A stretch of 64,000 bases of DNA, taken from Cenococcum geophilum. Taxonomy: Eukaryota. The stretch is taken from positions 20,584,001 through 20,648,000 of the forward strand of contig CP158635.1 of the NCBI GenBank assembly GCA_050273025.1, given 5' to 3'. The notes below the pieces were generated by a model. The model made no database searches and was not told the DNA's origin. It saw nothing but the letters and a program-made list of their open reading frames with translations. Shown piece after piece: positions 27,333 to 64,000 of this stretch (within the stretch, counting starts at the first letter, position 1; every line of letters starts with the position of its first letter). A program made the position numbers and the translations under genes.

Positions 27333-27458
27333 ATACTTTGCTTTTTAATTTTTATATATATCCACCTATAGATTTTCTAGCTATGCTTTTAGAATTCTTT
27401 ATACCTAAAAGCTCTTTAGTATCTTATAAATTCTTTTTAGTTCTCTATCCTTTTAGGT
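27333..27458. mobile_element. ~125-bp fragment of Gypsy pol (same family as the element at 53508-61467)
   Basis: Aligns without gaps to 55943-56068, including an exact 39-nt match TTCTAGCTATGCTTTTAGAATTCTTTATACCTAAAAGCT. Confidence 0.85.
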
Positions 27459-40800: not shown

Positions 40801-43800
40801 TTTAGACACCCGTTCCTTATATAGGGAGAAACTTTACAGACCTATATTTAGGAATCTTTTAACTATAACCCGTGCTACCTTACTAGTATGGAAATCCACT
40901 ACCTATACCGCCGTTTCGGCTACCTATTAGCTAAAAAGCTGCATAGAGTCCTTAAACGTTTTAGATATGACGACGTTAATAGGAAGGCAATTAACCACCT
41001 AACTAAATACTGCTCCTACTGCTAGAAATACGGACGTTCCCTAGGCCGATTTAAGTTCACCCTTTATAAGGATTTTAACTTTAACTACTTAGTATACGTA
41101 GACATTATGTATATTAACGGCAGCCTAGTACTATATATAATTAATAAGGTAACCCGTTATTAAGCCGCCCGTTAGTTATAAAATATATCCGTAAAGTATA
41201 CCTAGGATATCTTACGGACCTGCTAGATTAACACGTACGTTAGACCCCCGCAGTATATTACCTATAACGCCGGTAGAAACTTTATTAGTAAGGAATTCCA
41301 GTAATATGCTACGGCCATAGCTATCTCTATAAAAGCCGTTTTAGTTAAGGCGTATTAGTCTATTAGGCTTATTAAGTAAGCTTACCTAGCCTTACAGAGA
41401 GCTTACTAGATTATTACGGATAAATATAAGGACATTTAAAAGGAACTGGCTTTATAGATAGCCGTAAAAGCTATTAATGACACTGCTGGCCTGGATAGAC
41501 TAGTACTTACCCTCTTAGTTTACAGAGCCTATCTAAGGATAAGTAAATTAGATCCTTTTGCCCTGTATATTATAAAATAAGTAGCCGCAATATAGAAGGT
41601 AATAGCTAAGATAGTTAAGCTACGGGCTAAATAAACTGTTAATAACGCCCTATATTACCGCAACGGACCTAATATAACCCTAGTATACGACCTCCCGCTT
41701 AACTCTAAAGTCCTTATATAGCGTAAAAGCGGCAATTAGAATGGACCTTATTGCCTACTAGCCGTAAAAAACAAGACATGCTACGTATAACTCCCTAGCG
41801 GGCTAACTAGCTTTAGAAGTACGTCCGTAAAACCCTACTTTCGGCCTAAAGACAACTATGACGTCAAGCTAGACGAACTGGAAACACCCATTAAACTAGA
41901 TAAACTAAAAGCACCCCTGCCTACCTTAGAAGTCCCCTAGGAATTTACTAAACCCGTTAAACCTATAAAGTGTAGTTAAGGACGCCCCTAAAAGCACCCT
42001 ATAACTAAGAACCCCGTAATAAAGAATTACTTAACCTCTATAGGAATATCCGCAAGGCAATCTCCGCCTATAGATATATTAGTTTTAGTATAGGAATCCC
42101 CTTTTACGGACTTACGGCGTAAAGAGATTAATAGACTACTTAAAAAGGGTATCTTTACGGTTATAATAGAGAAAGACGTCCCGTAAGGCGTCCGTATATT
42201 TAACTTACGCTTTATTAATAAGATTAAGCACCCTAGTACTAATAAAGCCTTTAAGAAATTAAGGCTTATTATATAAGCTTATAACGATAAGGGAAAGGAC
42301 TTAGTCCTTATATAATTGCCTATAATTTAACGAGTTAGCCAACGGATTATACTTATACTTATGCCCGGCCTATAGTAAAGCAAACCTATAGCTCTTTACC
42401 TATAGGATATCTTATAAGCCTACGTATAGTCTAATACCTACCTAAGCAGAAATATCTTTATATAACTACCCCGTAAGCTTAACCTATAACTAAAAATAAT
42501 TTTATGGGTTATAAAACCTCTTTACGGAGTACTAGAAGCTAGAAACTATTAGTTTAAGATATACTACTAGTACTACGTTAGTAAACTTAAAATGGAACAG
42601 TCGACCTATAACCCCTACCTTTTATACAGCCTATCGAACGGCCTTAGTATTATTAAACTCTAAATAAACGATACCCTATTCCTAGCAGACTAAACCTTTA
42701 TAGACGCTAAAGAAACTAAACTATAAAAGGCTAAGTTCTTGGCAAATCCGTAAGAGTAGTTAACTAAGTAGAACCTAATTAAGTTTAATAAAGGCTTAAT
42801 TATATAAAAGGGCAACCTAATTAAGCTGACTTAGGAACGCCAAGCTTAAAACCTAAAGCCTATTATAGTAAAGCCTATAGACCTTACTAGTTCCCGCGAA
42901 GAGACCCGTAAGACCGTAAATATAAAGGACTAATATACTGTATAGTGTGTAAGAGGCGCCTATATTGCCACAGTCTGTTAGCCTAAATCTACCTATGATT
43001 TATTCTTTACGGCCTAGGTAATAGACCTATAAGAAGAAAATATTAAGCAGCTTAATAAGCGCATTTAGTGGCAAATTAATAATGCAGTAAGGGGACTTAC
43101 TTTTGTACTACTGGACCTAAGTTTTCTTAGCTTATTAGTATTTATGGACGCCTCCTTTACTAATACCAGGGACCTATTATCGCAAATTGGCTTTATAATC
43201 GTACTTACGGACTATAATTAGGACGTAAATATCCTATACTGGTCCTTAATTAAATGTAAATGGGTAACTTGTAGTGTACTAGCTTCTAAACTATATGCAC
43301 TAGCTTATAGCTTTAATATAGCAGCCGCAATTAAATTAATGGTCTAGAAGATTCTATAACTAGAGTAGTTACCCCTATTTTTATACACTAATTTAAAGTC
43401 CCTTTATAACTACCTAGTTAAACTAGATATAATATAAAAGAAGAGGCTTATAGTTAACCTAATGTGCTTATATTAGGCCTATAAATGACATAAAATTACA
43501 AAGGTTAAATAAATTAGTAGCGGAGACAACCTAGTAGACGCTATAACTAAGGTAAAGCTGTGTTAAGCCCTTAAAACCCTAATTAATATGAATAAGCTTA
43601 ACCTAAAAGTTATAAAATGGGTAGAACGGGACTAATAGAGTACCTATAGTACGCCTACGGCCCGTTAGAAGGCCGTACGGCTTATTATATGGCCTATTCT
43701 ACGGACTATAAGCTATTAGGTAGAAAACGGTAGAAAGCTATAATAAAACTTAGTGGACTTACGTGACCTACTAAATTCTACTATATTCTGCTAGGGTAGT

Positions 43801-44374
43801 TAAATTAACTAATTACGATTTTCTATCCCCGGGATGGAAAATCGCCATTAGCTTACTTAGCACTAGCGCCTTAGCGGCCCTTAAGATCTAACTTATAGCT
43901 TGTCTACTGCCCGTTAAAAGGCCTTATAGTTTATTTTATGGACCGTAAGTAGAACTTACGGCTAGCTTAGGGCACTGTTTAGAAGGTAGCCTAAACGGCA
44001 CCTTAGAGGAGTTCTCCTATGTATTTTCTTTTATATTTTATGGTTCTGTTAGAATAGTTATGGAGGCTATATATAGGTGGTTTTATTTTTTAAGTACCGC
44101 TAGTGTATAATTATAGCACCTGTTGTACTAACCGCGTGCCTACGCATTTGGTATACCAGGTACGCGTTTACGCGTTTAGTGCACTAACTACTTACTTACG
44201 CGTCTAGTGCACTTATAAAGTACTGACTAATTAGGGGGAGGACGTATTAGTATATAGACTACGTAGTCTGCTTTATATAATTGACAGTTACTACTATCTA
44301 AACGAGCATATAATACTATACGTATTTCGTGCCCCTGGATACAACTTACTCGTGCTATTAAGTTAGTACGAACA
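37844..44374 (+). mobile_element. Copia-like LTR retrotransposon A, full length, RIP-degraded
   Basis: 271-bp LTRs at 37844-38114 and 44104-44374 (TG..CA); ATAAT TSD on both sides. Domain order gag (CxxCGKKG(H)W), PR (GVMI(DT)GA ~40455), INT ((H)RRFG(HP)), RT, RNase H (F(T)DASF, SVLAS(E)LYAL, N(PA)DA(M)TK). Confidence 0.93.
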
Positions 44375-45431
44375 ATAATATATTAAAACCCCTTAAAATT
44401 TATATAATATAAGCCGCACCCTTTTATTTGTTAGTAAGGAAATAAGACTATAAGATCTTTACTATAATACTAAAAGATATTAAAAAAGTGTTAAAACTAA
44501 AGCAATATATTAACCCCTAACCTCTTATACCTAAAAAATATTATAATTTAATTAATACGTTTAAGAAATAATTTATAAACTAACTACCCCTATATTAAAA
44601 CGAGTATAATTTTAAAATAGAACTTAAACCTAGTATAACGCTAAAGTTTAGCCTATTATACGGTATATTACGAGAAAAGCTGCTTATAATATAATAATAC
44701 CTTAAAGAGTACTTAGAGAAAGGATTTATTTACCCTAGTTAATTACTATTTACCTCGCCTATATTATTTATTAAGAAACCTAAAGGAGGCTTAAGGTTCT
44801 ATATTAATTATTAAGCCTTAAATGCAATTATAATTTAAAACCAATATCTAATTTCTCTACTTTAAGAAACGCTTAACTACTTAATAAAAGTATAATACTT
44901 TATAAAGCTTAATATAGTTGCTACCTTTAATTAAATCTATATTTATAAAGGAGATAAAAAGTATATAGCTTTCTATATATAATAGAGATCTTTTAAATAT
45001 CTAATAATGCTATTTAGTGTAAAGAACGGTCCTAGTATGTTTTAGTAATATATTAATAATATACTTCGCGAATTCCTTAATCTATTTATTACCGTATATA
45101 TTAATAATATTTTAATCTATTTATCTTTACTTTTTAAGCATTAGAAGTATATCTAAATAGTTCTTAAACACCTATAAAACGCGGGCTTATAATGCAATAT
45201 TAAGAAATATAAGTTATATACTTAGGCCTAATTATATCCTATAATGGAATTAAAATAGACCCTAAAAAAATTACTGTAATTATAAACTAGGAAAGTCCTA
45301 GTAGTATATAAAATATTTAAGGATTTCTAAGATTTGCAAATTTTTATTATTAATTTATTAATTACTTTTTAAAAATTATTTAGCTATTAGTAAACTTAAT
45401 AAGGAAGAATATAAGATTTAAATAGACTACT

Positions 45432-48400
45432 TGTTCGTACTAACTTAATAGTATAAGTAAGTCGTATCCCGGGGCACGAAATACGTATAGTATTATATGC
45501 TCTTTGGGATGGTAGTAACTGTCAATTCTATTATAGTAGACTACGTAGTCTATATACTAACGCGCCTCCCCCCTAATTAGTTAGTATATAGGTGGTTAGT
45601 GCACGAACGTATAAATACGCGTTTGTATACTAGGTGCTATAATTATATACTAGCGGTACTTAGAAAATAAAATCACTTATATATAGCCTCCGTAATTGCC
45701 TTAATAGAACTATAAAATACGTAAGGAAATACATAGGAAATCCCTTTAAGGTGCCGTCTAGGCTGCCTTTTAAATGGTGCCCTAAGCTAGCCGTAAGTTC
45801 TACTTATGGTCCGTAAAATAAACCATATAGCCTTTTAACGGGCAGTAGATAAGCCATAAGTTAGATCTTAAGGGCCGCTAAGGCGCTAGTGCTAAGTGAG
45901 CTAATGGCGATTTTCCGTGCCTGGTATGGAAAATCGTAATTAGTTAATTTGACTACTGTGGCAAAATATAGTAGAATTTAGCAGGTTACGTAAGTCTACT
46001 AAGTTTCACTGTAGCTTTCTACCGTTTTCTATTTAATAGCTTATAGTCCGTAAAATAGGCTATATAATAAGCTGTACGGCCTTTTAACGGGCCGTAGGCG
46101 TACCGTAGGTACTTTGTTAGTCCCATTCTACCTATTTTATAACTTTTAGGTTAAGCCTATTTATATTAATTAGGGTTTTAAGGGCTTAATATAGCTTTAC
46201 CTTAGTTATAGCGTCTACTAGGTTATTTCCGCCGCTGATCTATTTAACTTTTATAATTTTATATCGTTTATAGGCCTAATATAAGTATATTAGGTTAACT
46301 ATAAGCCTCTTCTTTTATATTGTACCTAGTTTAACTAGGTAGTTATAGAGGGACTTTAAATCGGTATATAAAACTAGGGGTAACTACTTTAGTTATAGAA
46401 TCTTCTGGACCGTTAATTTAATTGCGGCTGCTATATTAAAGCTATAAGCTAGTATATATAGTTTAGAAGCTAGTATACTACGGGTTACCCGTTTATATTT
46501 AATTAAGGACTAATATAGAATATTTACGTCCTAATTATAGTCTGTAAGTACGATTATAAAGCCAATTTGTAATAATAGGTCCCTATTATTAGTAAAGGAG
46601 GCGTTTGTAAATACTAATAAGCTAAGGGAACTTAGGTCCAGTGGTATAAAAGTAAGTCCCCTTGCTGCATTATTAATTTGCCACTAAATGCGCTTATTAA
46701 GCTACTTAATATTTTCTTCTTACGGATCTACTACCTAGGCTATAAAGGATAAATTATAGGCAGATTTAGGCTGATAGACTATGGCAATATAGGCGCCTTT
46801 TATACGTTATGTAATGTATTAGTCCTTTATATTTACGGTTTTATAGGTCTTTCTATAGGAGCTAGTAAGGTCCGTAGGCTTTACTGTAATAGGCTTTAGG
46901 TTTTAAGCTTAGCATTCCTAAGTTAGCTTAATTAGATTGCCCTTTTATGTAATTAGGCCTCTATTAAACTTAATTAGATTCTGCTTAGTTAACTACTCTT
47001 ACAGCTTTGCTAAGAACTTAGCCTTTTATAGTTTAGTTTCTTTAGTATCTATAAAGGTCTAGTCTGCTAGGAATAAGGTATTATTTATTTAGAGTCCAAT
47101 AATACTAAGGCCGTTTAATAGGCTGTATAGGAGGTAGGGGTTATAGGTTAACTATTCCATTTTAAGCTTACTAACGTAATGCTAGTAGTATGTCTTAAAT
47201 TAATGGTTTCTAGCTTCTGGTACTTTGTAAAGAGGTTTTATAACCTATAAAATTATTCCTGGTTATAGGTTAAGCTTAAGGGGTGGCCGTATAAAGATGT
47301 CCCTATTTAGGTAGATATTAGACTGTATATAGGCTTATAAGATATCCCGTAAGTAAAGGGCTATAGATTTGGTTTGCTGTAGTCTAGGTATAAGTGCGAG
47401 TATAATCTATTAACTAACCCGTTAAATTATAGGCGATTATATAAGAACTAAGTCCTTTCTTTAGTCGTTATAGGCTTGTATAATAAGCCCTAATTTTTTA
47501 AAAGCTTTATTAGTATTAGGGTGCTTAATTTTATTAATAAAGCGTAAGTTAAATATACGGACGCCTTGCGGAACGTCTCTCTTCGTTATAACCGTAAAGA
47601 CGCCCTTCTTAAGTAGTCTGTTAATCTCTTTACGTTATAAGTCCGTAAAAGGGGTTTCCTGTACTAGAACTAATATATCTGTAGGTGGAGATTGCTTTGC
47701 GGATATGCCTGTGGAGGTTAGGTAATTCTCTATTATAGGGTTCTTATAGGGGCGTCCTCAGCTACGCTTTACGGTAGGTTTAGTAGGTTTAGTAGGTTTC
47801 TAGGGGACCTTTAGGATAAGTAAGGGTGCTTCTAGTTTGTTTAATTTGGCGGGTACTTTTAGTTTATCTAATTCGGCGGGTACTTCTAGTTTGTCTAGCT
47901 TAACGTTATAGGTATTTTTGGGCCAAAAGTAGGGTTTTACAGACGTGCTTCTGAAGCTAGTTGGCCTGCTAGGGAGTTGTACACAATACGTCTTATCTTC
48001 TACAGCTAGTAAACGGTAAGGTCTAGTCTAATTACCGCTCTCGCGCTATATAAGGACCTTAGAATTAAGCGGGAGGTTGTGTACTAAGGTTGTATTAGGT
48101 CCGTTACGGTAGTATAGAGCGTTATTAATAGTTTATTTAGCCCGTAATTTGACTATTTTAGCTATTGCCTTCCGTATTATAGCTGCTTATTCTATAATAG
48201 ATGGGGTAGGAGGGCCTAGGTTGCTTATCTTTAGGTAGGCTCTATAAACTAAGAGGGTAGGTACTAATCTGTTAGGGCTAGCAATGTTATTAATGGCTTT
48301 TATAGCTATCTGTAAAGCCAGTTCCTTTTAAATATCTTTATACTTATCTATAATAATCTAATAAGCTCTTTATAGAGCTAGGTAAGCTCGCTTAATAAGC

Positions 48401-51400
48401 CTAATAGACTAGTACGCCTTAACTGGAACGGCTTTTGTTAAAATAGCTATAGCTATAGCGTACTATTGGAATTCTTTGCTAATAAAGTTCCTACTAGCGT
48501 TATAGGTGATATAATTAGGGGGTTTAACGTATATGTTAATCTAGTAGGTCCGTAAAATGTCCTAAGTATATTTTATAGATATATTTTATAACTAACGGGC
48601 GGCTTAATAGTGGGTTGCCTTGTTAATTATATATAATACTAGGCTGCCGTTAATATATATAATGTTTATGTATACTAAGTGGTTAAAATTAAGGTCTTTA
48701 TAAAGGGTGAACTTAAATTAGCCTAGGGAACGTCCGTATTTCTAGCAAAAGGAGTAGTATTTAGTTAGGTGGTTAACTGCCTTTTTATTAACGTCGTTAT
48801 ATCTAGAGCGTTTAAGGACTCTATATAGCTTTTCGGCTAATAGGTGGCTAAAACGGCGGTATAGGCGGTAGATTTCCGTACTAGTAAGGTAGTACGGGTT
48901 ATAGTTAAAAGATTTCTAAATATAGGTTTATAAAGTCTCTCCCTATATAAGGAACGGGTGTCCAAATTGTTATATAATTGGTAAGGTAATATACTTACTT
49001 CCTAGGGTAGTTATAGGGCTAATTAGGGTGTCCGTAATATTATTATAGTATACCTATAACCTATCTATATCTGTAAGATAGAGTAGAAAGGGGGTGTCCG
49101 CTTTTACTATGTGGAAGTTAACTAGGCTAATTAGAGTCTTAACTTTAACTAATCTAATTAATGCGGTTAAGCTAATGCCGAATTAGACGTTTATGGCCCT
49201 AGTTTACGTAATATCAATGTCCGTATTATTATTTATAGTGGTCCTATATATAAGGTATTGTCTATAACCTATAGTAGACTTCTTAGAGGCACCTATATTA
49301 ATTATAACGCCGTAGAATTCTTTAGGGGTATAGCGTTCCGTAGTGATATATGTAAATAGGTCCTACTTATAATCTATAACATCTATAACGTCTATAACGG
49401 GTCCAACGGGTATACTTACGGGCTAGTTTTTAGGTGTAATTAAGTATATAAAGGAGCGGTCGGCTAATACGGTCGTAATATTAAAGGCTTAGCTGTCCGT
49501 AAAAGGTCTAAAAGTGGTTAGAAATATCTCTAAGGTCTCTTATTCCTAAGTATTTAAGTTAAAGTTAATTATAAGGGCTTCTATTAACTTATTAGGGGGC
49601 TCTTCTACTTTCTCTCCTTTATATTCCAAAATGAACTGGTTAATACGGCTATTAAGTCTCTTCCTAAACTTATTACATTCTTCCTAGGTATACCTTATAG
49701 ACTAATATCCTTTTTTACCGCACACGAAGCATTTCTGGCTGGTTTATCTATGGGGGTATATTTTCGTATAGGGGTTACTATAGGGGTTACGGGTAGGACT
49801 TAGTTGGTGCGGGTGCTGCTAGCGGTAGCGGCGGTCTATAAAGTAGACGTCTAAGTTTATTTACGGATATTAAATATCCGTAATAAAGGCTTAAGTGCTG
49901 CCTAGTTTAAGACTTTATATATTATAATAGAGGAGCGTAGATTATTAATAAGGCTAGCTAAGGTATCTATAGGCTTATAGTAGACGTACTTATAGGGCTC
50001 TACTTTCTAGTAGGCCGTAATAAGTTTATTATATAGGAAGTCGTCTATTCGAAGCTTAGCGTTAAGGCCGTGCTGTAGGTACCGGAGGTCTTTAATAAGA
50101 ATTTATAGGCACTCTATAGTCAATTTTTTAGTATTCTTGTTAATTACGGTCCGTAGCTTAGTCGCATTCTATTAGGTAAGAATATTACGCTTATATTCCG
50201 GTCCTTTAAAGTAGTTACGGGTGGCTTTATATAGCTTATTAAAGGGAACACCAAGAGGGTTGCTCTTAAGGTTAGTGTAGTAGTAGTTAAGTACTAGGCC
50301 GCGCAGTATAGTAGAGTAGGCTTGGCTAAACTCTTATTTAGGAATATTAGCCTTCTGGCAAAGGTCCGTAAAGATAGTTAGTTTAAAGTTAAAGTTATCG
50401 TTTTCACTACTATACTTAGATTTATTAGTGTAAAGGTTAGCTAGGTTAGCTAGCTCCTTACTATAGGTCTTCACTTAGGTAGATTGCAGATCTATAACTT
50501 ATAGATCTATAGCTTATGGATATATGGCTTACGGATATATAGTTTACGGATATATAGCTTGCGGATTTGTGACTTAAACAATAGGGGTAATTTGGTCCGT
50601 ATTTTGGGTTATAGGGGTATTATAGTCTATAGCGTGGTCCGTAACTTAAGAGTAGGGTATATTTTAGCTAGCAAGGTTAGCTCTAAAGCCGCTTAGGTCT
50701 ATAGGATAAATTTGGTTAAGTAGGTTAGGTATAAGGCTAGTAATCCTATTAAGTTTGGAAGAAGTAAAGAGTTCTTTAGTAGTTTTAACCTGGTCTAGGA
50801 TTTCCTCTTTAGTCCATTCTGTTTAGTTTTTTTTTATTATTATATTATATAAAGACTATATAACAGTAACTTATTTATCCCTTTTAACCTATACACCTTA
50901 GTTATGTAAAAGGGTTTGTAGTTTACGGATAGTAATAGGGTTATAGGCCTTAAAAATAGCTTCCGTAAAGTCCGTAAAGTCTTCCTGGTATTACTCCTAT
51001 AGGTTATTATTTATAAGCTTAAAGTGTTTGTATTTAAGGATTTTAAAACTAATATAGTCGTTAACGTCGTTTATAGACGTAACGTTGACTCCTTATCTCT
51101 ACTTCTTTTAACCTTTACTAACTTGCTTGCTAATGTCTGCCATACTATATAGTGTAGTGTAGTGTATATTAGGTAGTAGCAGCTTGTAACAGGTGGGGGA
51201 GGTTTTATAACAGTCCATAAAATCGATTAATAGGTCTATAATAGTTTATAGGAGGGTAAGGGGTTTCTATAAAAGGTCTAAAGAGGTTTAAGGTTTAAGG
51301 GGGTTAAGGATAGGGGTTCCCTATAGGTCTATATTCGCGTCTATAACTTCTAATAAACCGTACTAAGACTTAAATAAGTATATAGAGTTGGAGATAAGTC

Positions 51401-51754
51401 CGTAATCCCCGACTTCTGACCTTCTAGTAGGTCGTACTAGGAGTTTAAATGGGTGGTTACTGTCGTATATATCGCTCGGGGGGGGGGGGGGGGGGGGTGT
51501 TAAGTGATTGCTAATCTGTGCGCGCTTACTAATTAGTGTTTGTACTAACTTAATAGCATAAGTGAGTTGTATCCCGGGGCACGAAATACGTATAGTATTG
51601 TATGCTCTTTGGGATAGTGGTAACTGTCGATTCTATTGTGGTAGACTACGTGGTCTATATACTAACGCGCCTCCCCCCTAATTAGTCAGTATGTAGGTAG
51701 TTGGTGCACGAACGCGTAAATACGCGTTCGTATACTAGGTGCTGTAATTATATA
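45432..51754 (-). mobile_element. Copia-like LTR retrotransposon B (same family as A), full length, RIP-degraded
   Basis: 218-bp LTRs at 45432-45649 and 51537-51754; CTACT TSD at 45427-31 and 51755-59. The interior is a reverse-complement homolog of element A. Confidence 0.93.
51478..51497. repeat. Poly-G run (~20 nt) in the 5' leader of Copia B
   Basis: The equivalent position in element A (~38153-62) has only a short C-run. Confidence 0.9.
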
Positions 51755-53507
51755 CTACTAAATATAAATAAGCTTTTAATAACCTAAAATATTATTTTAT
51801 AACTACTTTAATTCTTATCTACTTTAATTTAGACCTTAAATATATTATTAAAACAGACTCGTCTAATTATATACTAGGAGGAGTATTATCGCAATATAAT
51901 AAAAACGGCGAGCTACGTCTAGTAGCCTTTCTCTCTTAGAAACTTACCCCTACTAAATTAAACTATAAAATATATAATAAGGAACTGCTTATAATTATTA
52001 AATACTTTAAATAAGAGCGTCTAGAACTTAAAGAATTATTATTTCTAATACGCGTATTAATGGATTATAAAAACCTATAGTACTTTATAACTATAAAGCA
52101 ATTAATATAACACTAAATTTGTTAGGCTAAATACCTCTTATAATTTAACTTTAAGATTACCTACTAATTTAGCAAACTTAATTAGAAGCCTAATTTATTA
52201 ATATAATAATTATAAAACTTACCTATAAACGCCTCTATTAAACGAATTATAAATTAATTATAAATTTTACTACCCTCTAAACGCTTTAAGAAACTACGCC
52301 CTATATTTTTAAATGCGGAGCTTAATAGAAATAAATTAGAAATTAATAAGTAGGATATAAAAATTAATAAATCAATAGAATATAAATATAAGAATAACCC
52401 CTAGATAGTAGATATAATAAAAGTAATTTAAATAGGGAAATAGCAATATAAGGATATTACACTCACTAAATACGAAATCTATAATAATTAGTTATACTAT
52501 TAATAAAAGATAGTAATCCCGAATTCTAAACCCTTATAATTTAAGATACTTAAATTTATATATAATTCCCTTATAGTAGGGCATCTAGGCTATATATTAA
52601 GACCTATAAAATTATCTAATAAGTATATTACTAGCCTATAATGCATAACTATATATTAAAATATGTTTGAGTATATAGAATATATATATGTAGGAAGACC
52701 TCTTATATAAAGAAGTAAAGAGTACTTTAACTATTACCAATTCCAATATAAAGATAGTGAGATATCTTAATTAACTTTATAGTTAACCTACCTAATAGTA
52801 ATAGGTTTATAAATATTATAGTAGTTATTAACTATTTTATAAAAATACAATATATAATTCCTATAGACTTAATTAATGCAATATTAGTAGCTAAATGTTT
52901 TATTAAGCACGTCTTTAAGCTATATAGTCTTCCTAATTTAATAATATCTAACTATAGAAGCTAATTTATTTTAGACTTCTAGTAAGCCCTATATAAACAA
53001 TTAAGTATATAAATACAACTCTTAACTGTATTTTATTTAGAGACAGATAGTTAAACTAAAATTATAAATACAATTATAGAACAATACCTATAAGATAACT
53101 AAAAAAAGTGGCTACCTTTAGCTAAGTTTACTATAAATAATATAAGAAATAAATTAATAGGCGTAACGCCATTCTACGCAACCTATAGATAAGACCCTTA
53201 ATTTAGATTTAAACTATAACCTGAAATTAATACAATAGGACCTATAATTAAGAGGATTTAACTAATTAACGCGTATAACTTCGCTAATTAAATAAAGTAG
53301 TTAATGGAACTATTATAAAGTAAATTAGCGTACGCTTAAATAGTATAAAAATAGTATATAAATAAAGGACAAGCTCCTATATAGGACTTTAAGGAAGGTA
53401 ATATAGTTTACCTAAATATATAAAACCTAAAGACTTAATAACCCTTAAAGAAACTTAATTAGAAGTTTATAGGCCTATATTAAATTAAGAAGAGACTAAG
53501 CCCGTAT

Positions 53508-56500
53508 TGTAACGGAACCTTATAGCAAGAACTACGGTAGGTCCTGTTATTGGGCTAGGTGTATAGGAAATGCAAATAACAATAGTCGACAAGTAATAAC
53601 AACTAGTGGAGTGGTTGCCTAACAGATTAACTCTAATTATATTCTAAGAATCACTATAAGGAAGGAACTATCTAGGTAGGGATTAAGGGTCCTTAAATAC
53701 ACAACCGTACTCCTATAAAATCCTTCTTATATATAATATACGTCTTATATATAAGGTACGTAAGTTCCTCTTATTCCTCTTGTTTAATACGTAGCATATT
53801 ATATAACCTCGGCTACTATTCCTTATCACATAGTTCTACCGATTCCATCCTAGACCGTACCTAAATTAACTAACTAGCTTCTTTTAACTCTTCCCTAAGT
53901 AGTTATAATATTATACTTAAAGCGTCCGTAACACTATCTCCCTCCTCTTTATCTTCGTCCTTAAAGATTCCTAATATCTCTAAGTTATTTACTAGAGGTA
54001 TAATATCCGTCTAATTAATTTAGTTAATATTATTACTTATTATACCTAAAGCAATTTCTTCTTTATACGCCTAACGTTATGCTTACACTATTACTGTAAT
54101 ATTATCTCTTAGTGAGATTATGCTATCTCTATGTTCTTGCTATTTGAAAGAGGGGTTGGTTTATATTATGTTAGCGAACCCATCTTCGCGACAACTGTTC
54201 TTTTACTTAAAGTGCACTAAAGCAAATATTTATTTGTCCTGTGACGTTCGCTCTACCTCTAATACTAAATATATGTGACCTATTACTCTTAATAGTTGTC
54301 TAGTTCCCTAATTAATTTATCTTAGGGTTTTATATTTAATCTGCTGCTATACGGCTAAATAGTAAACTGTCTTAAGCCCTTGCTAAGTTAGAATATTCTT
54401 ATAATGCGGAACAAAAGGCCCTAGATACTCGCATCGCGGCGTCTACTTAATTACTTCGCCTTAAGAAGGTTTGTAAGAAGGTTTGTTTTAAGGAGTAGAA
54501 ACTTATAGAATAGGGTTTACAGGAACTTAGTAATAAAAAAACAGATTCTCTTCTAATAGAGAAGGAAATAGATCCGAGTAGTTCGGTAACTGCTCTTCTT
54601 AGGTCCCCCTTAGGTGACTTATTCTTTGGCGATCCTTCTTTATTAATGCTACCTAACCTAATCTCCTCTAATACTCCTATACCTTTCCTATAGCGTTTTT
54701 TAAATTCTCTAGTAGTTCCTAGGTAGTCTTAGTGTAGCCTAACCACTTAACCTTATACTATATTTTATCGTCAACGTCCTTATAACTAATAATCCTTAAA
54801 ACTTGCTATTTATCTTCTTCTCTCCCTCTATACGTGTCTGCTTCGTAGACTAGTGGCTTAATATTCCCATATGCTAACTCTAGTATCGCGATATACTGTA
54901 CAGGGTAGATCTTTATTTTGGCTAGTAGGTTTAACTTAAATATAACTAGTGAAATCCTTTATATAATTTCGAAAGGTCCTAGTCTAATATAGTCTAACTT
55001 CTTGCTTAGTCGTTAACTCTTAAAATTTTTATATAGTAGCCATACTTTATCTCCCTCCTTAAGATCTAGTCCCTTAGATCTCTTAGCGTTATAGTACCTT
55101 TTTATCCTTTATTGTACTTCCTTAGCTGTTTCTGTAAGGTTTATATAAAGATTTATTAAAGTCTCCATTCTTTACTTAGCTCTACTACTCGTTTTCTTTG
55201 CTTGTCGTGGCAATAACGATATTCTTAGCTTATATCCGTAATTCGCCTTAAATAGTAACGTACCCATTCCTTCTTAAGGTATTATATTATATACAAACTA
55301 TATAACTAGTAATAGTAATACCCAATTGTTCTATATATGATTAATATAATATCTTAAATACTGCTCTAGTGTCTAATTTAACCTTTCTATTTAACTGTCT
55401 ATCTGCGGATAATATACAATAGAAGTTGCTGCTTAAACTCCTTGTTCCGCTAAGAATACCTCCTAAAATGCTGCTATAAATCTTAGATCTCTATCCGATA
55501 TAATCTTACTTAGTGCTCCATGTCTTATAAACACTTCTTTAATATAGATTCTAGCGACATCTTCCGCTGAGATTTCTTTTATACATGCTATAAAGTATCC
55601 CCACTTTATAAGCTTGTTTACTATTACTAAGATCGTATTATAATCTTATCCAGTAATAGGATCTCTTAACTTTAGTAACTTAATAATAAAGTCCTATAAT
55701 ATAACCTCCTATAGTCTCTCTGGTATTTTAATAGGTTATAGCCCTCTATATAGCTTATGCCTTATTAGTTTATTTTTTTAGTAATCTAAATACTCCCTTA
55801 TAACCTTCCTAGCTATTCTTTAGATTCCATTAATAATATACTCTTCTTGGAGTCTTAACACTAAGCCTATGGCTCTATTATGTTCTTAAGTTAATCCCTT
55901 ATAGAACTCTTCTATAAATTGCTTAGCTATGCTTCTTAGGATATACTTTACTTCTCGATTTTCGTATATATCTATCTATAGATCTTCTAGCTATGCTTTT
56001 AGAATTCTTTATACCTAAAAGCTTTCTAGTGCCTTATAGACTCTTTCTAGCTCCTTATCTTCCTAAGTCGCTATAATCTTTAGATAATTGTACCTAATTA
56101 ATCCATCTATATCTTTTCGTAGTAAAGCCCCTAATGGCTTCTCGTCATTTTGTAGTTTAGCTTTGCGGCTTAGAGCATCTGCCCGCGTATTATCTGTACC
56201 CTTAGTATACTAAATCTCGAAATAATATTCTGTAAGTATCTCTGCCTATCTAACCTATCTTTAGTTAAGTTCCTTTATTATTAGGAATCCTATTAGGTTC
56301 TTATAATCCGTCTTAACTATAAATAGTTTCTCTATGCCTTGCAAGAATGCTCTCTATTCCTTTAATGCTATAACTATATCTAATAACTCCTTATTATAAA
56401 TGTTATAGTTTAACTCTAGTAGTGTTATCTTCCGACTATAGTATACCACTGGGTGCTATTTATCTTAATGCTTTTATATAAAGCATGCCCCTAGTATAAA

Positions 56501-59500
56501 GTCTAATACATCTATCTTTATAACCGTCTCTAGTCCTAGTTAATAGATCTTAAGAACTAGCTCCTAGGTAAATAACCTCTTAACTTCCTTAAATAGCTCT
56601 TATTACTCTTTTCCCTATACCTATAGTTCTTCTTTCTTTATTAATTGCGTAAGTAGCTTAATATCCTTTAACTACTGCGCTATAAACCTTCTACAGTAAT
56701 TACAAAACCCTAAGAACGATCTTAATTGCGTAACGTTCTCTAGTTCTTACCAATTCACTATAGCCTCAATCTTCTTTAGATTTATACTAAGTTAGCCTAG
56801 TTTAATAATAAATCTAACAAAATCGGTCTTCCTAGTAAAGAACTCGTATTTTTTAATTACTACTAGCATCTGTTCTTTCTATAGTCTCTTTAAAACCCAT
56901 TTAACGTATTCTCTATATTCTTCCTTAGTCATTAAGTAGATAATAATATCGTTAAGATATACCATAATAAATTCATCTAAGTATTCTCCTAATATATTGT
57001 TAATACGCTTCTGGAACGTTACTAGTGCGTTTATAAGCCTAAATTATATAACTAATAGTTTATATAGTCCTTCCTTTAACCTAAAGGCTACCTTTTATTC
57101 GTCGCCTTTCTTAATCCTAATCTAATAGTACGCCCATCTTAGATCTATCTTCGTAAAGATTTACGCATTGCCTATCCTATCTTAGATTTCGCTAATTAAG
57201 GGTAAAGAATACCTATCCTTTCTTATAATGCTGTTTAACTATCTATAGTTAATATACAGCCTTAGTTTGCTATTTTTCTTTAATATAAACAGTACTAGAT
57301 AACCCGCTAATAACTGCGATGGTCTAATATATCCCTTTTATAAGTTTTCTTAGATAAACTCTTTTAGTACTCTACCTTCTTCTTTAGTAAGCTTATAGAT
57401 TAGAAAGAACCTTAGACTTATTCCTAGTTCTAATTCTATCTTATAGTCCTATACTATATACTCTAACAGCTTTTTACTCTCTAGTAACCATAGTTTCTTA
57501 CTATACTTATAGTATCTCTTTAGTACATAACTTAAGCCTTACTTAGTTTCTTTATATATCGCTCCGACTTAGTACTATACTAACTTAGCTTATTATTATA
57601 TCTTGCGGCGTTAAGTATCCCTAATATTAACCTAACCTATAATTCAATCAATCCTTAGATTATATTCCTGTAACTAAGGCATTCCTAGTACTGCCTTATT
57701 ATTCCCTAATAGTAATATATCAAAAGATATCTCAATTTATCTCCCTTTAATAGTTAACTAAATAGGTCCTATTTTAAGATTAATAATCCCTCCTCTATAG
57801 GCTATTAGATCTCCTAAAATTATCACTAATAGGTAAGGCTCCTCTTTTTATCTATAAGGTAATCCCATTCTTTTAACTATTACTAGCGAGATATAGTTCC
57901 TTATTACTCCACTATCTATTAATGCCTCAAACTATTAATCTTACTATTTAACTTATAAATTTAGGTGTTATCCTTAAATTCCTTTAAGGGTCTAAGGCTC
58001 TACCACTAGCTCCCTCTAGTCCCGTAGGCCTCTACTTTTCCTAACTATTAGCTACTTAATCTTATTACACTTAGCTTACTCTTTAGCCAATGCCTAGTTC
58101 GCTTTTTATTTTTAATATACTATAGATATATATTCTCTAGGCATTCCCACCACTGTCGTCCTTCTAAGTATTCTTCTATAAGGAATCTTCCTAGTTAAAG
58201 TATTAAATTTCCTTCCTCTTAGACTTCTGCTGGATGCCATTTGTATATATATTTAGCATTTCTATACTATTACTTATCCGTTATCTAGTATATCCTTACA
58301 AAGTATTTCCAATTCTTTTCCTTTAAATTCTTATACATTTCGCATATATCGTCCACGCACGTAATCTATAATAACATATAGTATGCTAGGTGCTTTAGGT
58401 TAACTCTTAGCTTATCTTTATCCCTAAGTTTAAACCTCTATTGTACTAATCTAAACGTTATAACTTCGTTCGCAGGTACTAAGGTGCGTCTCTTACTTCT
58501 CTAGTCCTCTAATTATTTCTTTAGATCCTTTAACGTTATAATTAAGGCTTCTTTAATATAAGTTATAGCCTTTTCTATAATCGGGTAGTCCTAGATAACT
58601 TTTTTATCTAACCACATATAGAAATCTTCCCACTTATCGTTATACCTCTGCCTATACTACTTTTAGTACAGCTGCTAGAGTATATACAGCCTATCCATAA
58701 GGAAGTATCTTTTTATTACTATATCGTAACAGCCCTTTATATGTCGTTCTTCAAACCTAATAGGAATTCCTAAATCCTCTTCGTTTTCCAGTTTGGTAAG
58801 CCACTTAGCTCTTAATGTGCCTACTCTTAGCCTATTAGTAATTCTTTATACTAGCGCTCTGTCCCTTATACGTCCTAATATACTAGATCTCTTATCTAGT
58901 TTCTATTCTTACTATGCGATAATTCTTGCTCTAAATTCGTCCATAGTTTCCTTTGGTTTGCGCCTTGCGCTTAAATCCTTAAAATCGTCTTACTTCTTAA
59001 TCTTAGTATTAACTTTTTAATCTTTAGTCCGAACACTATATTCTACTAGTAAGTCCTCTAGGTCTATATATTTGTCTCCTAGTCTAGTTACTGTTTATAT
59101 TATAGATTCTCTAATTTATAAAGAAGCTCCTTACTTCTTGCCTATAGGTGTTTTAATTTACACTCCGAATTCCTAACCCCTTAGATTCTTTAATCCTAAG
59201 CTTGCTTCTAACTTAAGCTTAGCTTCAGCCTTAGTCCAACTAGGCTTACTTAGTATTCTTATCTCATCTTAAGAGTCTTAAATTTCACTTATCTCGTCTT
59301 AAGAATCTTATACCTATGGGAATTTTCATCCCGAGCTCATTTATATGTCTTTAAACTAAGCTGCTACTCTACTCCATTAGTTATTGTCCATTATAGGTCC
59401 TTAAGCTTACCTTATCTCATCTTAAGAGTCTTAGTCGTCTCTTATCTCATCTTAAGAATCTTAAGCCTTTGGCTTCTTACCTTTATTAAGTGCCAAAGTG

Positions 59501-61467
59501 GCTCGCTGTCCTACTTCTCTTACGTCTTATAAAGCGATAGACATCGTGTCTAGTAGGGTCTTAATCCCTACTAATATTCCCTATTCTGTAGTAGAATTAT
59601 CCTCTACCTCTAGTATAACATCTCTAATAGCTACGTGTTCCTAGTAAACCGCCCTTATTGCCTTATTGTTACGAAATATTTCGCCTATATCGAATTCATT
59701 ATCCTTAATGTCCGATCTACGAACTAGTTTATTAGTTTCTTTATATTCTACAGGTACTAGCTCCTATAGCTAGTAGCTTACGCCGTACTTAGCGTCTTTA
59801 TAAATTTGGTATGCATTATTATAATAAAATGCAAAACTTTTAATTAAATACTCTTTTATTCCTTATAGCACACTATTATCCCTCTATACATATATATTAT
59901 CTACTACTAGTCTAGTTCCCTTTATTATATAGTACTTCTAACTATCTTTATAATCCCTTACAAAGTGACCCTATTTTCCGCAATTTATATAAGCTCCATC
60001 TCTAAACCATTAACTTTACTATAGAGTCCGCCTAAACATCTTCTACTATTAAGATCCCTGGTTTAGCCTCTGCTCCTTAGTCCTATAATCACTAGATCCT
60101 TAACCTCTAGGTTTTTATAGTTTCTTACTCCATCTCTTATAGGCTTCTTTAGTACTACTTAGGTCTATTAGCTCTACGCTATACTATAGTTTCTAACTTA
60201 GCTTTAGTCATTATATACTCTGCGTCTTATACGACTATAAAACTCTATCCTAACCTCTTTTAGCCTGTTCCCTTTAGTAGATCCAATTATTAATCTTAAT
60301 CGCCTAATCTATTAGTTCCCTTAGGGTATCTATATCTTCTATTAGAATAATTACGTCCTAGACTTTAGCCTTAAGTCCCTATTTATACTGTGCTATAAGC
60401 GCCCTATTATTCTACTTAACTTATATTGCTAGCGTCTAGAACTACGTTATATACTTAATTACTAACGTTCACTGCGTAATATCTTAGAGTTTTCTTTCCG
60501 CTATAGTTACTGCCTTTAGGTCTCTAAATATTTATATAAGTTACTCCACAAATCCATTCTAGCTTAAGAACATAAACCGTACCTCTTAGTTTATAGTCGT
60601 TATTCTATTTACCTGGATTTCCGTAAGGTAAGGCTTAAACTACTTAAGTGCTCTTCCTATTAGGAACAATCCCGCGTACGCTATTTAATCTATAGGTGTT
60701 ACCAGCTTAGCTCCCTCTTACGCAACCTTAAAGTGCATTTGCGTAAGGAATCCTTTAAGCTTTAATCTCTCTCCCAAGTATCTTTTAATTAATAGTAACT
60801 TAACCTTTACTGCGCCTATCCTATTAATCCTATTTTCTAACGTCGCATTATTTTCTATTAACTAGTTAACTATCTCTTATAGTTGTCCAACCGTTATAGG
60901 TTACTGTAAGTTAGTGTCTGCTATATTAGTGTCGTTACCTAACCTTAATGTAGTTGCCGCCGTTAATAGCGTTATAGTGGCTGCTTTTAGTGGCATGTTA
61001 TCTAACTTACTATATTTAATACCGTGACTAGGTAGTAATTATATAACGGAACCTTATAGCAAGAACTACGGTAGGTCCTATTATTAGGCTAGGTGTATAG
61101 GAAATATAAATAATAATAGTTAATAAGTAATAACAACTAGTAGAGTGGTTGCCTAATAGATTAACTCTAATTATATTCTAAGAATCACTATAAGGAAGGA
61201 ACTATCTAGGTAGGGACTAAGGGTCCTTAAATACACAACCGTACTCCTATAAAATCCTTCTTATACGTAATATACGTCTTATACGTAAGGTATATAAGTT
61301 CCTCTCGTTCCTCTCGTTTAATACATAGCACATTATATGACCTCGGCTACCATTCCTCGTTACATGGTTCTACCGGTTCCATTCTAGACCGTGCCTAAAT
61401 TAACCAACTAGCTTCTTCCAACTCTTCCCTAAGTAGTCGTAATATTGTACTTAAAGCGTCCGTAACA
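53508..61467 (-). mobile_element. Ty3/Gypsy chromovirus 2, full length, RIP-degraded
   Basis: 426-bp LTRs at 53508-53933 and 61042-61467; CGTAT TSD; PPT GAGGAGGGAGATAG next to the 3' LTR. gag ATG ~60997, protease ALIDSG ~57915, RT YL(D)DII ~56950, RNase H, integrase, chromodomain ~54660-54830 (Y(E)VKW.GY..TT(W)E(P).ENL). Confidence 0.93.
54042..54726 (+). pseudogene. Antisense two-exon gene inside Gypsy 2: Zn(II)2Cys6-like cluster + coiled coil, RIP-mutated
   Basis: One continuous frame across a 55-nt intron 54271-54325. Cys or Tyr (TGY>TAY) codons lie at Cx2Cx6Cx13Cx2Cx8C spacing. All stops are TAA/TAG and are consistent with C>T/G>A transitions. Start and end are approximate. Confidence 0.7.
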
Positions 61468-62646
61468 CGTATACTTCTAAGCTTAAACTACTAACTAAGA
61501 TAAAAATATATCTAACGTTTTATATAAGCTTACTATAATCTTTAAAGGGTAAACATATAACTTATAAAGTGCCGCCGCTACCTTCTATAATTATTAATAA
61601 CGGTAATAGTTCTTACTTTATTAACTTAATTAATAATATATAATAGAAAATATAATCTAAATAATTTAAACTCCTTATTAAGTAAAAAGGATATAAAATA
61701 TAAACTTAGGAAACCTATAACTAGATTAAGACTAACGCGCCTTCCCTAGTAAAAGAATTCTATAAAGACTATCCTTTATAGCCTACTCTAGCTAGATAAA
61801 TATAATATAAAGATAAAAGACTAATACCTAATATAAATATACGAAATATAATAGCAGAAAGCTTAAAATTAAAAAGAACTTAAAATATATTATAACATTT
61901 ATAATATAATTACGTAATACGTAAGATATTAAGGAACTTTAACCGCCAGTTAAAGTTATTTAATTAGTTAGATCCGCCTTACTAAAACCTACTATAAGAT
62001 ATTAGTTCTGCTTACCGCCTTAACTAAGCTAATAGCAATTTTCTATCCTAGGGATAGAAAATCCTAATTAGCCTATTTAACGATTAGAACTAGTAAAACC
62101 TTATACTACTACCTAACGCGAAAATATAATACGTAATAAGTTATAAGTCTTAACTAAAATTAAATTATTTAGACCTTTAGCTAAAAGTGGGGGTACTATA
62201 ACGAGACTAGCCTAGTTATAATAAGAATGTCTTAATAAAACACTTAATAAATAAATTCCGGCGCTTTAACCAAATTTTACTAAAGTCCGTTAAAGACCGC
62301 ATGCGTATATACACACGCATTAACTACTAAGCCCCTAACTATTTAATTATATAATTCTCTTATTATTCCTTTCTCTTCTTTATATAACGTCTTGTTCTTA
62401 GCGAGAGCTATATACCCTTAGGTTTAGATAGAATTTATATCATTCCTTTAAATCTTCCCTAAAGTCTCTTCGCGCCCTTATAGGGTTATAAACTTTGGTT
62501 AAATAGACCCTAGTTATAAATAGGCCTATTTTATAATATATAAATAGTCTATTAAGCTAGTATAGAGTAATAAACTAGTTTAGGAAGGGTGCTCTTTAAA
62601 TTAAGCTTTATTATTAGCGTACGCTATAGCTTTACCTATAAGTTTC

Positions 62647-62990: not shown

Positions 62991-63337
62991 GTTGCCTATA
63001 AGTTACCTATAAGTCACTAGTATAACTAGGTTACATTAAAGTGTGGCTTATATAGGATATTAATAAATTACGCTTTATCCTATATATATACCGTAGTTCT
63101 TACTATAAGTATTAGCTTATTCTTTAATCCCTTAAAACGTCCTTTATTCCGCTTTAGCGTAATTATAAAAGGCTAGTCTAACCGGAACGTATAATTATCT
63201 AATTAATAGTATAGAATAAGAGTTATAGTTAAGTAGAAGATAAGGTAAGGTAGAATAATCTTTATAAATAAAGGATAAATACTTTCTAACCTCTTTTATT
63301 TAGAGACTAATTGCTAGCTCTTCTTTAAAGGAGAACT

Positions 63338-64000
63338 TGTTACAAACGCTTTAAGTACAATGTTATAACTACTTGGAGAAGAGTTGGAGGAAGCTAGTTG
63401 GTTAATATAAGCACGGTCCAGGATAGATCCGGTAGAACTATGTGACGAGGAATAGTAACCAAGTCACGTGATGTAATCTGTGTGATCTGTATAATCTGTG
63501 TAATCTGTGTAACAGAGTAAACAGAGCACACGTACCTTACGTATAAGAAGGATTTCATAGGAGTACGGTTATATATTTAAGGACCCTTAGTCCCTACCTA
63601 GATAGTTCCTTCCTTATAGTAATTCTCAGAATACAATTAGAGTTAATCTATTGGGCAACCACTCCACCAGTTATTATTACGTTATTAACTTTATATATTA
63701 CCTACACACCTAGCCTAATAACAAACCCACCGTAGTACTTGCTACAAGGTTCCGTTATATAATTACTACCTAGTTATAATATTAAAAGTTAAACAATATG
63801 CCACTAAAAGCAGCCACTATAACGCTATTGACGGCGGCAACTACTTTAAGGTTAGGAGGTAACACCAGTATAGCAGATACTAACTCATAACAACCTATAA
63901 CAGTTGAATAATTATAAGAAATAGTTAACCAGTTAATAGAAAATAATACGGTACTTAAATAAAGGGTTAATAGAATAGGAGCAGCAAAGGTTAAGTTACT
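63338..64000 (+). mobile_element. 5' LTR and gag start of another Gypsy 2-family element (runs off the window)
   Basis: LTR 63338-63759 is a reverse-complement homolog of 61042-61467, with an 11-bp TGTAATCTGTG tandem array. gag ATG at 63798 (MPLKAATITLLTAATT) matches ~60997. Confidence 0.9.

Follow-up and report, generated by a model that had tools for sequence, protein, structure and literature searches.

The 64,000-nucleotide stretch of the Cenococcum geophilum genome analysed here (assembly GCA_050273025.1, contig CP158635.1, positions 20,584,001 to 20,648,000; hereafter the window, whose own coordinates are used throughout) contains a Ty3/Gypsy chromovirus on its minus strand. On the plus strand of this element, at 54042–54693, between the edge of a long terminal repeat (LTR) at 53934 and the chromodomain at 54644–54823, lies a decayed, intron-bearing antisense gene. 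We regard it, with a probability of about 85 per cent, as the dead copy of a true third gene belonging to an ascomycete Ty3/Gypsy chromovirus family; the product may be a zinc-binding regulator. In intact relatives the gene encodes a protein of about 200 residues. Its short basic/hydrophobic N-terminus is followed by six invariant cysteines and by a helix some 75 residues long, for which pairing as a coiled coil is predicted; the acidic tail, rich in Ser and Pro, closes with a conserved motif.

LTR retrotransposons are usually taken to need gag and pol only. The presence of a third gene, antisense, interrupted by an intron and held by purifying selection, suggests that one group of fungal elements supplies a factor of its own. 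This gene recurs in at least 91 metagenome-contig copies and 83 protein clusters, and it was missed by annotation because most copies are mutated. The window itself holds a dead relic, of value as a pointer to the family.

The gene had been proposed from the letters of the window alone, as an antisense gene resembling a Zn(II)2Cys6 transcription factor. That observation is confirmed by the present analysis, and its structural reading is supported. All the letters, frames and splice sites given in the initial annotation are present in the sequence, and the parts of the gene are as follows (P numbers denote homologous proteins).

54042–54270, plus strand: exon 1 of the dead copy, with ATA now at the start position, one stop (TAA at 54072), a basic/hydrophobic N-terminus and the six-Cys cluster (phmmer; tblastn with P0084, E 3.4e-13, and with P0086, E 8e-13)
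54132–54242, plus strand: cysteine cluster C-x2-C-x6-C-x13-C-x2-C-x8-C (alignment to relatives)
54271–54325, plus strand: 55-nt intron, with the donor now ATATGT, a branch-like CTAAT and the acceptor TTAG (same-site introns of relatives, +1 frame offset, RNA-library contig)
54326–54693, plus strand: exon 2, with the Trp junction codon, coiled coil, acidic/Ser-Pro tail and conserved C-terminal motif (BLASTP, with X at stops, against P0084, E 2e-12; tblastn with P0087, E 2.5e-16, and with P0090, E 1.4e-14)

The plus frame from 54075 reads ..EIMLSLCSCYLKEGLVYIMLANPSSRQLFFYLKCTKANIYLSCDVRSTSNTKYM* (asterisks mark stops), and the open frame of 67 amino acids (aa) spans 54075–54275. The strings ATATGT, CTAAT and TTAG occupy 54271–54276, 54308–54312 and 54322–54325, respectively. 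Joining T (54270) to GG (54326–54327) gives TGG, after which the frame continues into ..AEQKALDTRIAAST*LLRLKKVCKKVCFKE*KLIE*GLQEL... The six cluster codons begin at 54132, 54141, 54162, 54204, 54213 and 54240; cluster positions 2, 3 and 4 are tyrosine in the window (TAT at 54141, TAT at 54162 and TAC at 54204). There is a further TGC at 54138, read as cysteine in the window, where the relatives have arginine (CGY). The ATA at 54042 had been interpreted as a former start codon, in agreement with the close relatives P0001 and P0004, which begin Met-Pro-Lys-Ala where the window has ATA-CCT-AAA-GCA. The start of the proposed extent (54042–54726) stands; its end does not, the stop homologous to that of the relatives being TAG at 54691–54693, 33 nt earlier. 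The overlap with the end of the chromodomain is as described: its last 50 nt or so cover the 3' end of the antisense gene.

With the mutated 67-aa frame as query, phmmer found 83 proteins at E ≤ 1e-3 among 1.84 billion representatives; five of them are at E ≤ 1e-10, and the best has E 1.4e-13 and 62% identity. Mutation has also affected most of these matches, which are reads with many Y, L and I, and no longer protein came out of a word-indexed search with the mutated frame. From the least damaged match, P0056, the trail led to P0084 (239 aa) and from there, by a further search, to P0086 (152 aa). Both carry cysteine at six of the six predicted positions (spacing 2-6-13-2-8), followed by ..SDAEW.. 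and a long helical segment, inside which P0086 terminates. The Trp of ..SDAEW.. coincides in both with the predicted exon junction. In P0084 there is an acidic Ser/Pro tail, which ends in a motif shared with the window (..MLPNLISSNTPIPFL). When seven intact-type proteins are compared with the whole window by tblastn, only this locus is matched, in two frames, at E about 3e-13 to 2.5e-16. The three tyrosines of the window cluster had been taken for former cysteines, and intact relatives do carry cysteine at those positions.

The six columns were followed through two larger sets. In 76 of the 92 collected proteins they hold C or Y save for seven cells; this set was chosen by the presence of at least four C or Y, and the 16 rows left out are truncated, exon-2-only or unrelated. 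In metagenome DNA, 70 of the 95 exon-1 matches were picked by two anchor residues, with no C/Y threshold (the other 25 are without the anchors), and 420 of their 420 cluster cells are C or Y, the most C/Y-rich of overlapping layout matches having been retained. Fully intact rows have six cysteines with the spacing given above. At 54142, the second letter of the Tyr codon that stands at cysteine position 2, contigs of two DNA runs have G, and thus TGT, in 49% and 41% of the depth.

The cysteine pattern on its own is weak evidence, because a loosened form of it (C or Y at the six places, no stop), which occurs once in 30001–64000, at this locus, also turns up in 8% of 300 dinucleotide shuffles of this 34-kb AT-rich region. 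The frame might accordingly be a chance reading of an AT-rich spacer affected by repeat-induced point mutation (RIP) and rich in TAY codons, and Pfam applied to the raw 67-aa frame gives only a sub-threshold match, to Motile_Sperm, taken as spurious. This explanation, to which we give next to no credence, is already refuted by the 83 homologues, intact ones among them, by the matches to both exons and by 91 copies of the same anatomy. Since homologues match both exons, the frame is far beyond chance.

The copies were drawn from public runs and metagenome contigs, not from a within-genome set. The metagenome contig scan gave 243 relatives, and 79 loci were retrieved. Matches to exon 1 and exon 2 are paired in the 91 copies, which come from 76 of the 79 loci; the exons are offset by +1 frame in 89 of the 91, and in five copies the matches are stop-free. 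Complete gene models were obtained for three loci, L002 (209 aa), L003 (197 aa) and L004 (202 aa), with GT..AG introns of 55, 55 and 127 nt, respectively, exactly at the predicted site. L002 and L003 are complete elements with gag, protease, reverse transcriptase, RNase H, integrase and chromodomain.

The surroundings of these copies bear on whether a host gene, or a piece of some other element, landed in the window copy by accident. Such an insertion would be in keeping with the two other LTR elements of the window (37844–44379 and 45432–51757), in which tblastn on the window found no match to the antisense gene. It is extremely unlikely, however, in view of the copies elsewhere: an integrase–chromodomain lies on the opposite strand beyond exon 2, within 1.5 kb, in 82 of the 84 copies whose flank exceeds 1.5 kb, and the gene of L002 and L003 is bracketed by the chromodomain on one side and the LTR/gag of a complete element on the other. 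The element family is also highly repeated in the DNA runs of two organisms, with 27411 and 14763 contig pieces aligned.

The length of the unit is similar in L002 (7513 nt), L003 (7505 nt) and L019 (7546 nt), and L002 shows the gag of the next unit after the LTR. In L019, exon 1 lies at the end of the contig and exon 2 at its start, and the contig ends overlap by three letters within the intron. One element unit is circularly permuted in this contig, probably through assembly collapse of repeats.

The reading of ATATGT as the degenerate donor of a 55-nt intron is borne out by the intact copies, which have GT..AG at the same site, and by one RNA-library contig without exactly those 55 nt. An antisense intron is not spliced from the genomic RNA of the element, and because it stays there it is copied at each transposition. 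The 55-nt introns of L002 (4275–4329) and L003 (499–553) are identical at 44 of 55 positions, and 65.8 of the 154 synonymous sites of the gene differ, so that conservation seems higher in the intron than at silent sites. The 127-nt intron of L004 is unlike those of L002 and L003.

Ratios of non-synonymous to synonymous substitution (dN/dS) were estimated by the Nei–Gojobori method for the spliced plus-strand coding sequence. The three pairs formed by L002–L004 give 0.147, 0.236 and 0.169; the value for pol between L002 and L003 is 0.088. A homologous antisense frame under purifying selection (dN/dS 0.15–0.24) therefore exists in related elements. On the points that the initial annotation had marked beforehand as decisive, relatives are thus found without tyrosines or stops at the cysteine positions, with a GT donor and with a selected homologous frame.

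The two strands can be separated in exon 2, where their third positions do not coincide. Differences fall at plus-strand third positions in 38 of 66, 64 of 138 and 66 of 130 cases (p 6e-5, 1.5e-3 and 5e-5), and dN/dS is 0.23 for the plus frame versus 0.73 for the open minus frame. Because differences gather at the plus third positions and dN/dS is lower on the plus strand, the plus gene is the constrained one.

In intact relatives the pol frame of the minus strand continues past the chromodomain (L002, 3784–4848; L003, 29–1036; L001, 1196–1751; L019, 1–517). This extension runs across the whole antisense gene, for 125 residues in L001, 294 in L002, 275 in L003 and at least 112 in L019, and in L002 and L003 it passes the polypurine tract into the LTR. 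With the plus protein kept and its synonymous codons redrawn, the minus frame came through without a stop in only 111 and 136 of 5000 trials; in the reverse resampling the plus frame was open in only 371 and 73 of 5000. Both strands may be coding here, or selection may act only against stops. A stronger version, in which the whole signal belongs to a long C-terminal extension of pol and the plus frames are open as a by-product, draws on the open pol frame of these four copies and on its rarity among the redraws. We consider it very unlikely. It conflicts with the pile-up of exon 2 changes at plus third positions, with the lower dN/dS of the plus strand and with the rarity of an open plus frame in the reverse trials. 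Nor does it agree with the GT..AG intron that the plus frames need and that is present, 55 versus 127 nt long while the exons are conserved, with L004, which is without any open minus frame, with the spliced RNA-library contig, or with the six invariant cysteines and the heptad-like helix.

Four runs were aligned to 53800–54900, contigs being accepted at 80% likeness. In the fungal metatranscriptome run X15, one contig (depth 8, shorter side 38 letters) joins 54270 to 54335 through nine bridging letters, which differ from 54326–54334 at three positions, all C/T or G/A; the net loss is exactly 54271–54325 (55 nt). A spliced form of the antisense gene thus exists in an RNA library. The joint is found in none of the contigs of the DNA runs X1 and X6, although contigs cannot prove its absence in DNA, and another X15 contig reads through the intron unspliced. 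A further run, X21, gave 31 raw RNA reads, all less than 95% alike and from diverged copies; their first mate lies almost only on the minus strand, an orientation that may stand for either transcript strand, depending on the library protocol.

The decay of the window copy was traced over 54030–54710 by comparison with L002 and L003. Where these two agree, 104 of 131 polarised differences of the window are G>A or C>T. Such transitions include the start (ATA), the stop at 54072, the three Cys>Tyr changes, the donor (AT for GT) and the five internal stops of exon 2 (54337, 54373, 54448, 54496 and 54511), which stand at Gln, Arg or Trp codons of the relatives. The window copy is inactive because the start codon, the splice donor and three of the six cysteines are lost and five internal stops are present. 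As judged from this comparison, it is dead, killed by RIP-like C>T and G>A transitions. Among the C>T/G>A contexts in the same interval, CpG accounts for 40, about as many as TpG/CpA (34 + 10). Classic Neurospora RIP favours CpA; the CpG share reflects either another mutational preference here or added decay of methylated cytosine.

The coiled coil and the acidic/Ser-Pro tail proposed for the window are homologous to those of the intact proteins. The AlphaFold model has a helix at 77–151 with a predicted local distance difference test (pLDDT) value above 95; exon 1 alone gives a mean pLDDT of 58. A homodimer model with zinc riding along scores 0.47, versus 0.19 for the best control, with contact agreement between runs of at least 83% and a partner pLDDT of at least 76. 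The ligand places this run outside the calibration of the dimer tool, which does not report metal geometry. Of proteins solved as pairs, 21 of 30 attained the dimer mark, and of those solved as single chains none of 23. Among eukaryotes, 17 of 29 pairs attained it, but only one of the seven pairs without an older solved relative did, and none of 30 single chains. The modelling supports homodimer binding but does not show it.

Two Pfam families come close to the cysteine region. Among seven intact exon-1 peptides, DUF3716 (PF12511) gives E 6e-4 to 0.2 in six, with no match for P0086, and Zn_clus (PF00172) gives E 0.005–0.083 in six; with Zn_clus, P0084 has E 4 and two of 16 mutated members have E of about 1. 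In the protein atlas there is no match at 0.9 or above; one cluster at a score of 0.75, with DUF3716 in 28% of its members, is a lead only. A weak, non-significant likeness of the L003 cysteine region to C2H2 linker-fingers in PDB was rejected as an effect of composition. The Gal4-type Zn(II)2Cys6 assignment of the initial annotation therefore stands in part: the six cysteines, the similar spacing and the coiled coil after them are present, and the Pfam scores are below cut-off and the fold models of the cysteine region unreliable. On these sequence comparisons, the cluster appears Gal4-like in its spacing and DUF3716-like in profile, and its Gal4-type identity is a resemblance only.

Several points weigh against the reading of this locus as a third gene for a zinc-binding regulator. 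The dN/dS values come from three copies only. The pol frame is open across the antisense gene in four intact copies, and conservation could partly serve that other strand. The spliced form is a single contig at 80% likeness in a metagenome library, and the start and strand of the transcript are putative. In the AlphaFold model of P0086 the cysteine cluster is unreliable (pLDDT 44–60). The best DUF3716 score, 20.1 bits (L003, profile positions 3–59 of 59), is below the cut-off of 22, and the best Zn_clus score, 17.3 bits (E 0.0054), is below that of 21. Searches of PDB sequences are without a significant match: a profile of 16 mostly mutated members finds none, and P0084 finds only matches at E ≥ 0.06, with PPR1 at E 4.4. 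Clusters of Gal4 type usually have basic residues between Cys2 and Cys3, most of which are missing here, and the dimer as modelled is antiparallel (90 paired with 136, 115 with 115), the coil of Gal4 being parallel.

The gene could be real without encoding a DNA-binding transcription regulator. The chances are not far short of even that it specifies a zinc-binding coiled-coil protein for another step of the element, such as binding of element RNA or proteins, particle assembly, nuclear entry, integration or the countering of host silencing. The cysteine spacing followed by a coiled coil, which is the Gal4-type layout, and the weak Zn_clus matches of six of the seven intact peptides speak for a regulator. 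The lack of a significant match to Zn_clus or to a solved DNA-binding domain, the standing of DUF3716, a family of unknown function, as the best sub-threshold family, and the antiparallel modelled dimer point to some other role. So does the statement, in the review passages available, that antisense open reading frames (ORFs) between pol and the 3' LTR are of unknown function (PMC7264820).

If the product is nevertheless a regulator, it may be made and act as follows, a tentative scheme that we hold to be possible, with the odds leaning against it. An antisense transcript would begin in or beside the 3' LTR; once spliced, it would yield the six-Cys protein, which would hold two zinc ions through its cysteines and dimerise through the coiled coil; and the dimer would be a nucleic-acid-binding regulator encoded by the element. 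Should the protein bind DNA, the element could use it to modulate element or host gene expression, and the orphan domain DUF3716 would gain a first functional context.

The element that carries the gene is about 8 kb long and enclosed by an LTR pair. In the minus-strand read-through, with X at stops, Pfam finds gag-asp_proteas, RVT_1 (E 1.7e-14), RT_RNaseH (E 3.2e-18) and SH3_Tf2-1, in that order; Pfam Chromo itself gives no match in the degraded window copy. The element is a Ty3/Gypsy chromovirus on the minus strand, because it combines the LTR pair with pol domains in one minus frame and a terminal chromodomain. Its features are the following.

53510–53934, minus strand: 3' LTR, a 425-nt direct repeat with 91% identity to 61044–61468
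53935–53951, minus strand: polypurine tract beside the 3' LTR, inferred from position only (a plus-strand pyrimidine run directly inside the LTR edge; minus reading GRR*RGGR)
54644–54823, minus strand: chromodomain at the pol end (58% identity, E 9e-26, to the Pfam-Chromo part of L003 pol)
54824–61042, minus strand: gag-pol remnant in a single frame with many stops (Pfam on the read-through)
61044–61468, minus strand: 5' LTR, partner of the 425-nt repeat

In the gag-side region of the element, at 59258–59472, a 62-nt repeat occurs three times, with copies 61–85% identical. There is a second, inverted copy of the same element family at 63335–64000 (LTR and start of the internal region, 78–81% identity), ended by the window edge. 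The G+C content of the window shifts at about 30–33 kb, from about 45–60% to an AT-rich block of 22–38%, which spans the window from 33 kb on (GC 0.22–0.38). The LTR pairs of the two other elements, at 37844–44379 and 45432–51757, are 276 and 221 nt long, with 91% identity. At the edge of the G+C-richer part, 117 nt (27333–27449) have 84% identity to the integrase region at 55943–56059 and are probably a fragment of a related element.

Among known systems, the cluster is like the Gal4-type domain PF00172 in having two C-x2-C-x6/8-C halves, six cysteines and then a coiled coil. The Gal4-type spacing is C-x2-C-x6-C-x5-12-C-x2-C-x6-8-C; the middle spacer of 13 in intact relatives is one residue beyond this range, and the few basic residues between Cys2 and Cys3 and the antiparallel modelled dimer are further differences. 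The HBZ gene of human T-cell leukaemia virus type 1 (HTLV-1) is spliced, antisense and transcribed from the 3' LTR, and it encodes a dimerising basic zipper (bZIP) factor. By analogy only, the window gene is similar: it too is antisense and has an intron, and it lies at the 3' end of a retroelement, with a coiled-coil nuclear factor as its proposed product. HBZ differs in belonging to a human retrovirus and in having a basic zipper, not a Cys cluster, and transcription of the window gene from the LTR is only proposed.

Two genes of the Zymoseptoria tritici class II transposon REP9, namely REP9-1 and REP9-2, carry DUF3716, and, in the passages available from that study, one of the two affects pycnidia formation (PMC8232023). 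The likeness lies in a fungal Cys-rich domain of about 59 residues, of unknown function and also transposon-borne, which may be a recurrent passenger of fungal transposons, as far as these passages go. REP9 differs in being a DNA transposon, not a retrotransposon, and the window family scores just under the cut-off for the domain. The widest reading of these parallels would give a whole ascomycete chromovirus clade its own dimeric, zinc-binding, DNA-binding factor, made from a spliced antisense 3' LTR transcript as a fungal counterpart of HBZ, with a DUF3716/Zn2Cys6-like module shared with class II elements such as REP9, and the gene would double as coding sequence for a pol C-terminal extension kept open by selection; we consider this reading unlikely.

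Antisense ORFs of the type aORF-3R are described, in the review passages available, for the plant LTR retrotransposons Grande of maize, RIRE2 of rice, Retand of Silene and PvRetro13 of Phaseolus (PMC7264820). They have the same place and orientation as the window gene, are conserved within their families and are of unknown function; they differ in belonging to plant elements of other Gypsy lineages, and the likeness, as these passages allow it to be drawn, is one of position and orientation. For fungal Gypsy elements, our literature search, as far as its listings go, pointed to nothing on an antisense zinc-cluster gene, and none of the homologue matches is named brtn. This last gene, reportedly described by Zhao et al. 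in 2011 (Virology 417:248), is the closest precedent. In the citing passages, brtn is an additional gene that the Boty-like Gypsy elements of Botrytis carry in antisense orientation, placed between pol and the 3' LTR (PMC8365987, PMC7264820, PMC4227169, PMC5987419). Both genes are extra genes opposite gag-pol, between pol and the 3' LTR, in fungal Gypsy elements whose pol ends in a chromodomain; they are likened here by position and strand, as given in those passages. On that footing, an antisense gene at this place of a fungal Gypsy element has already been described.

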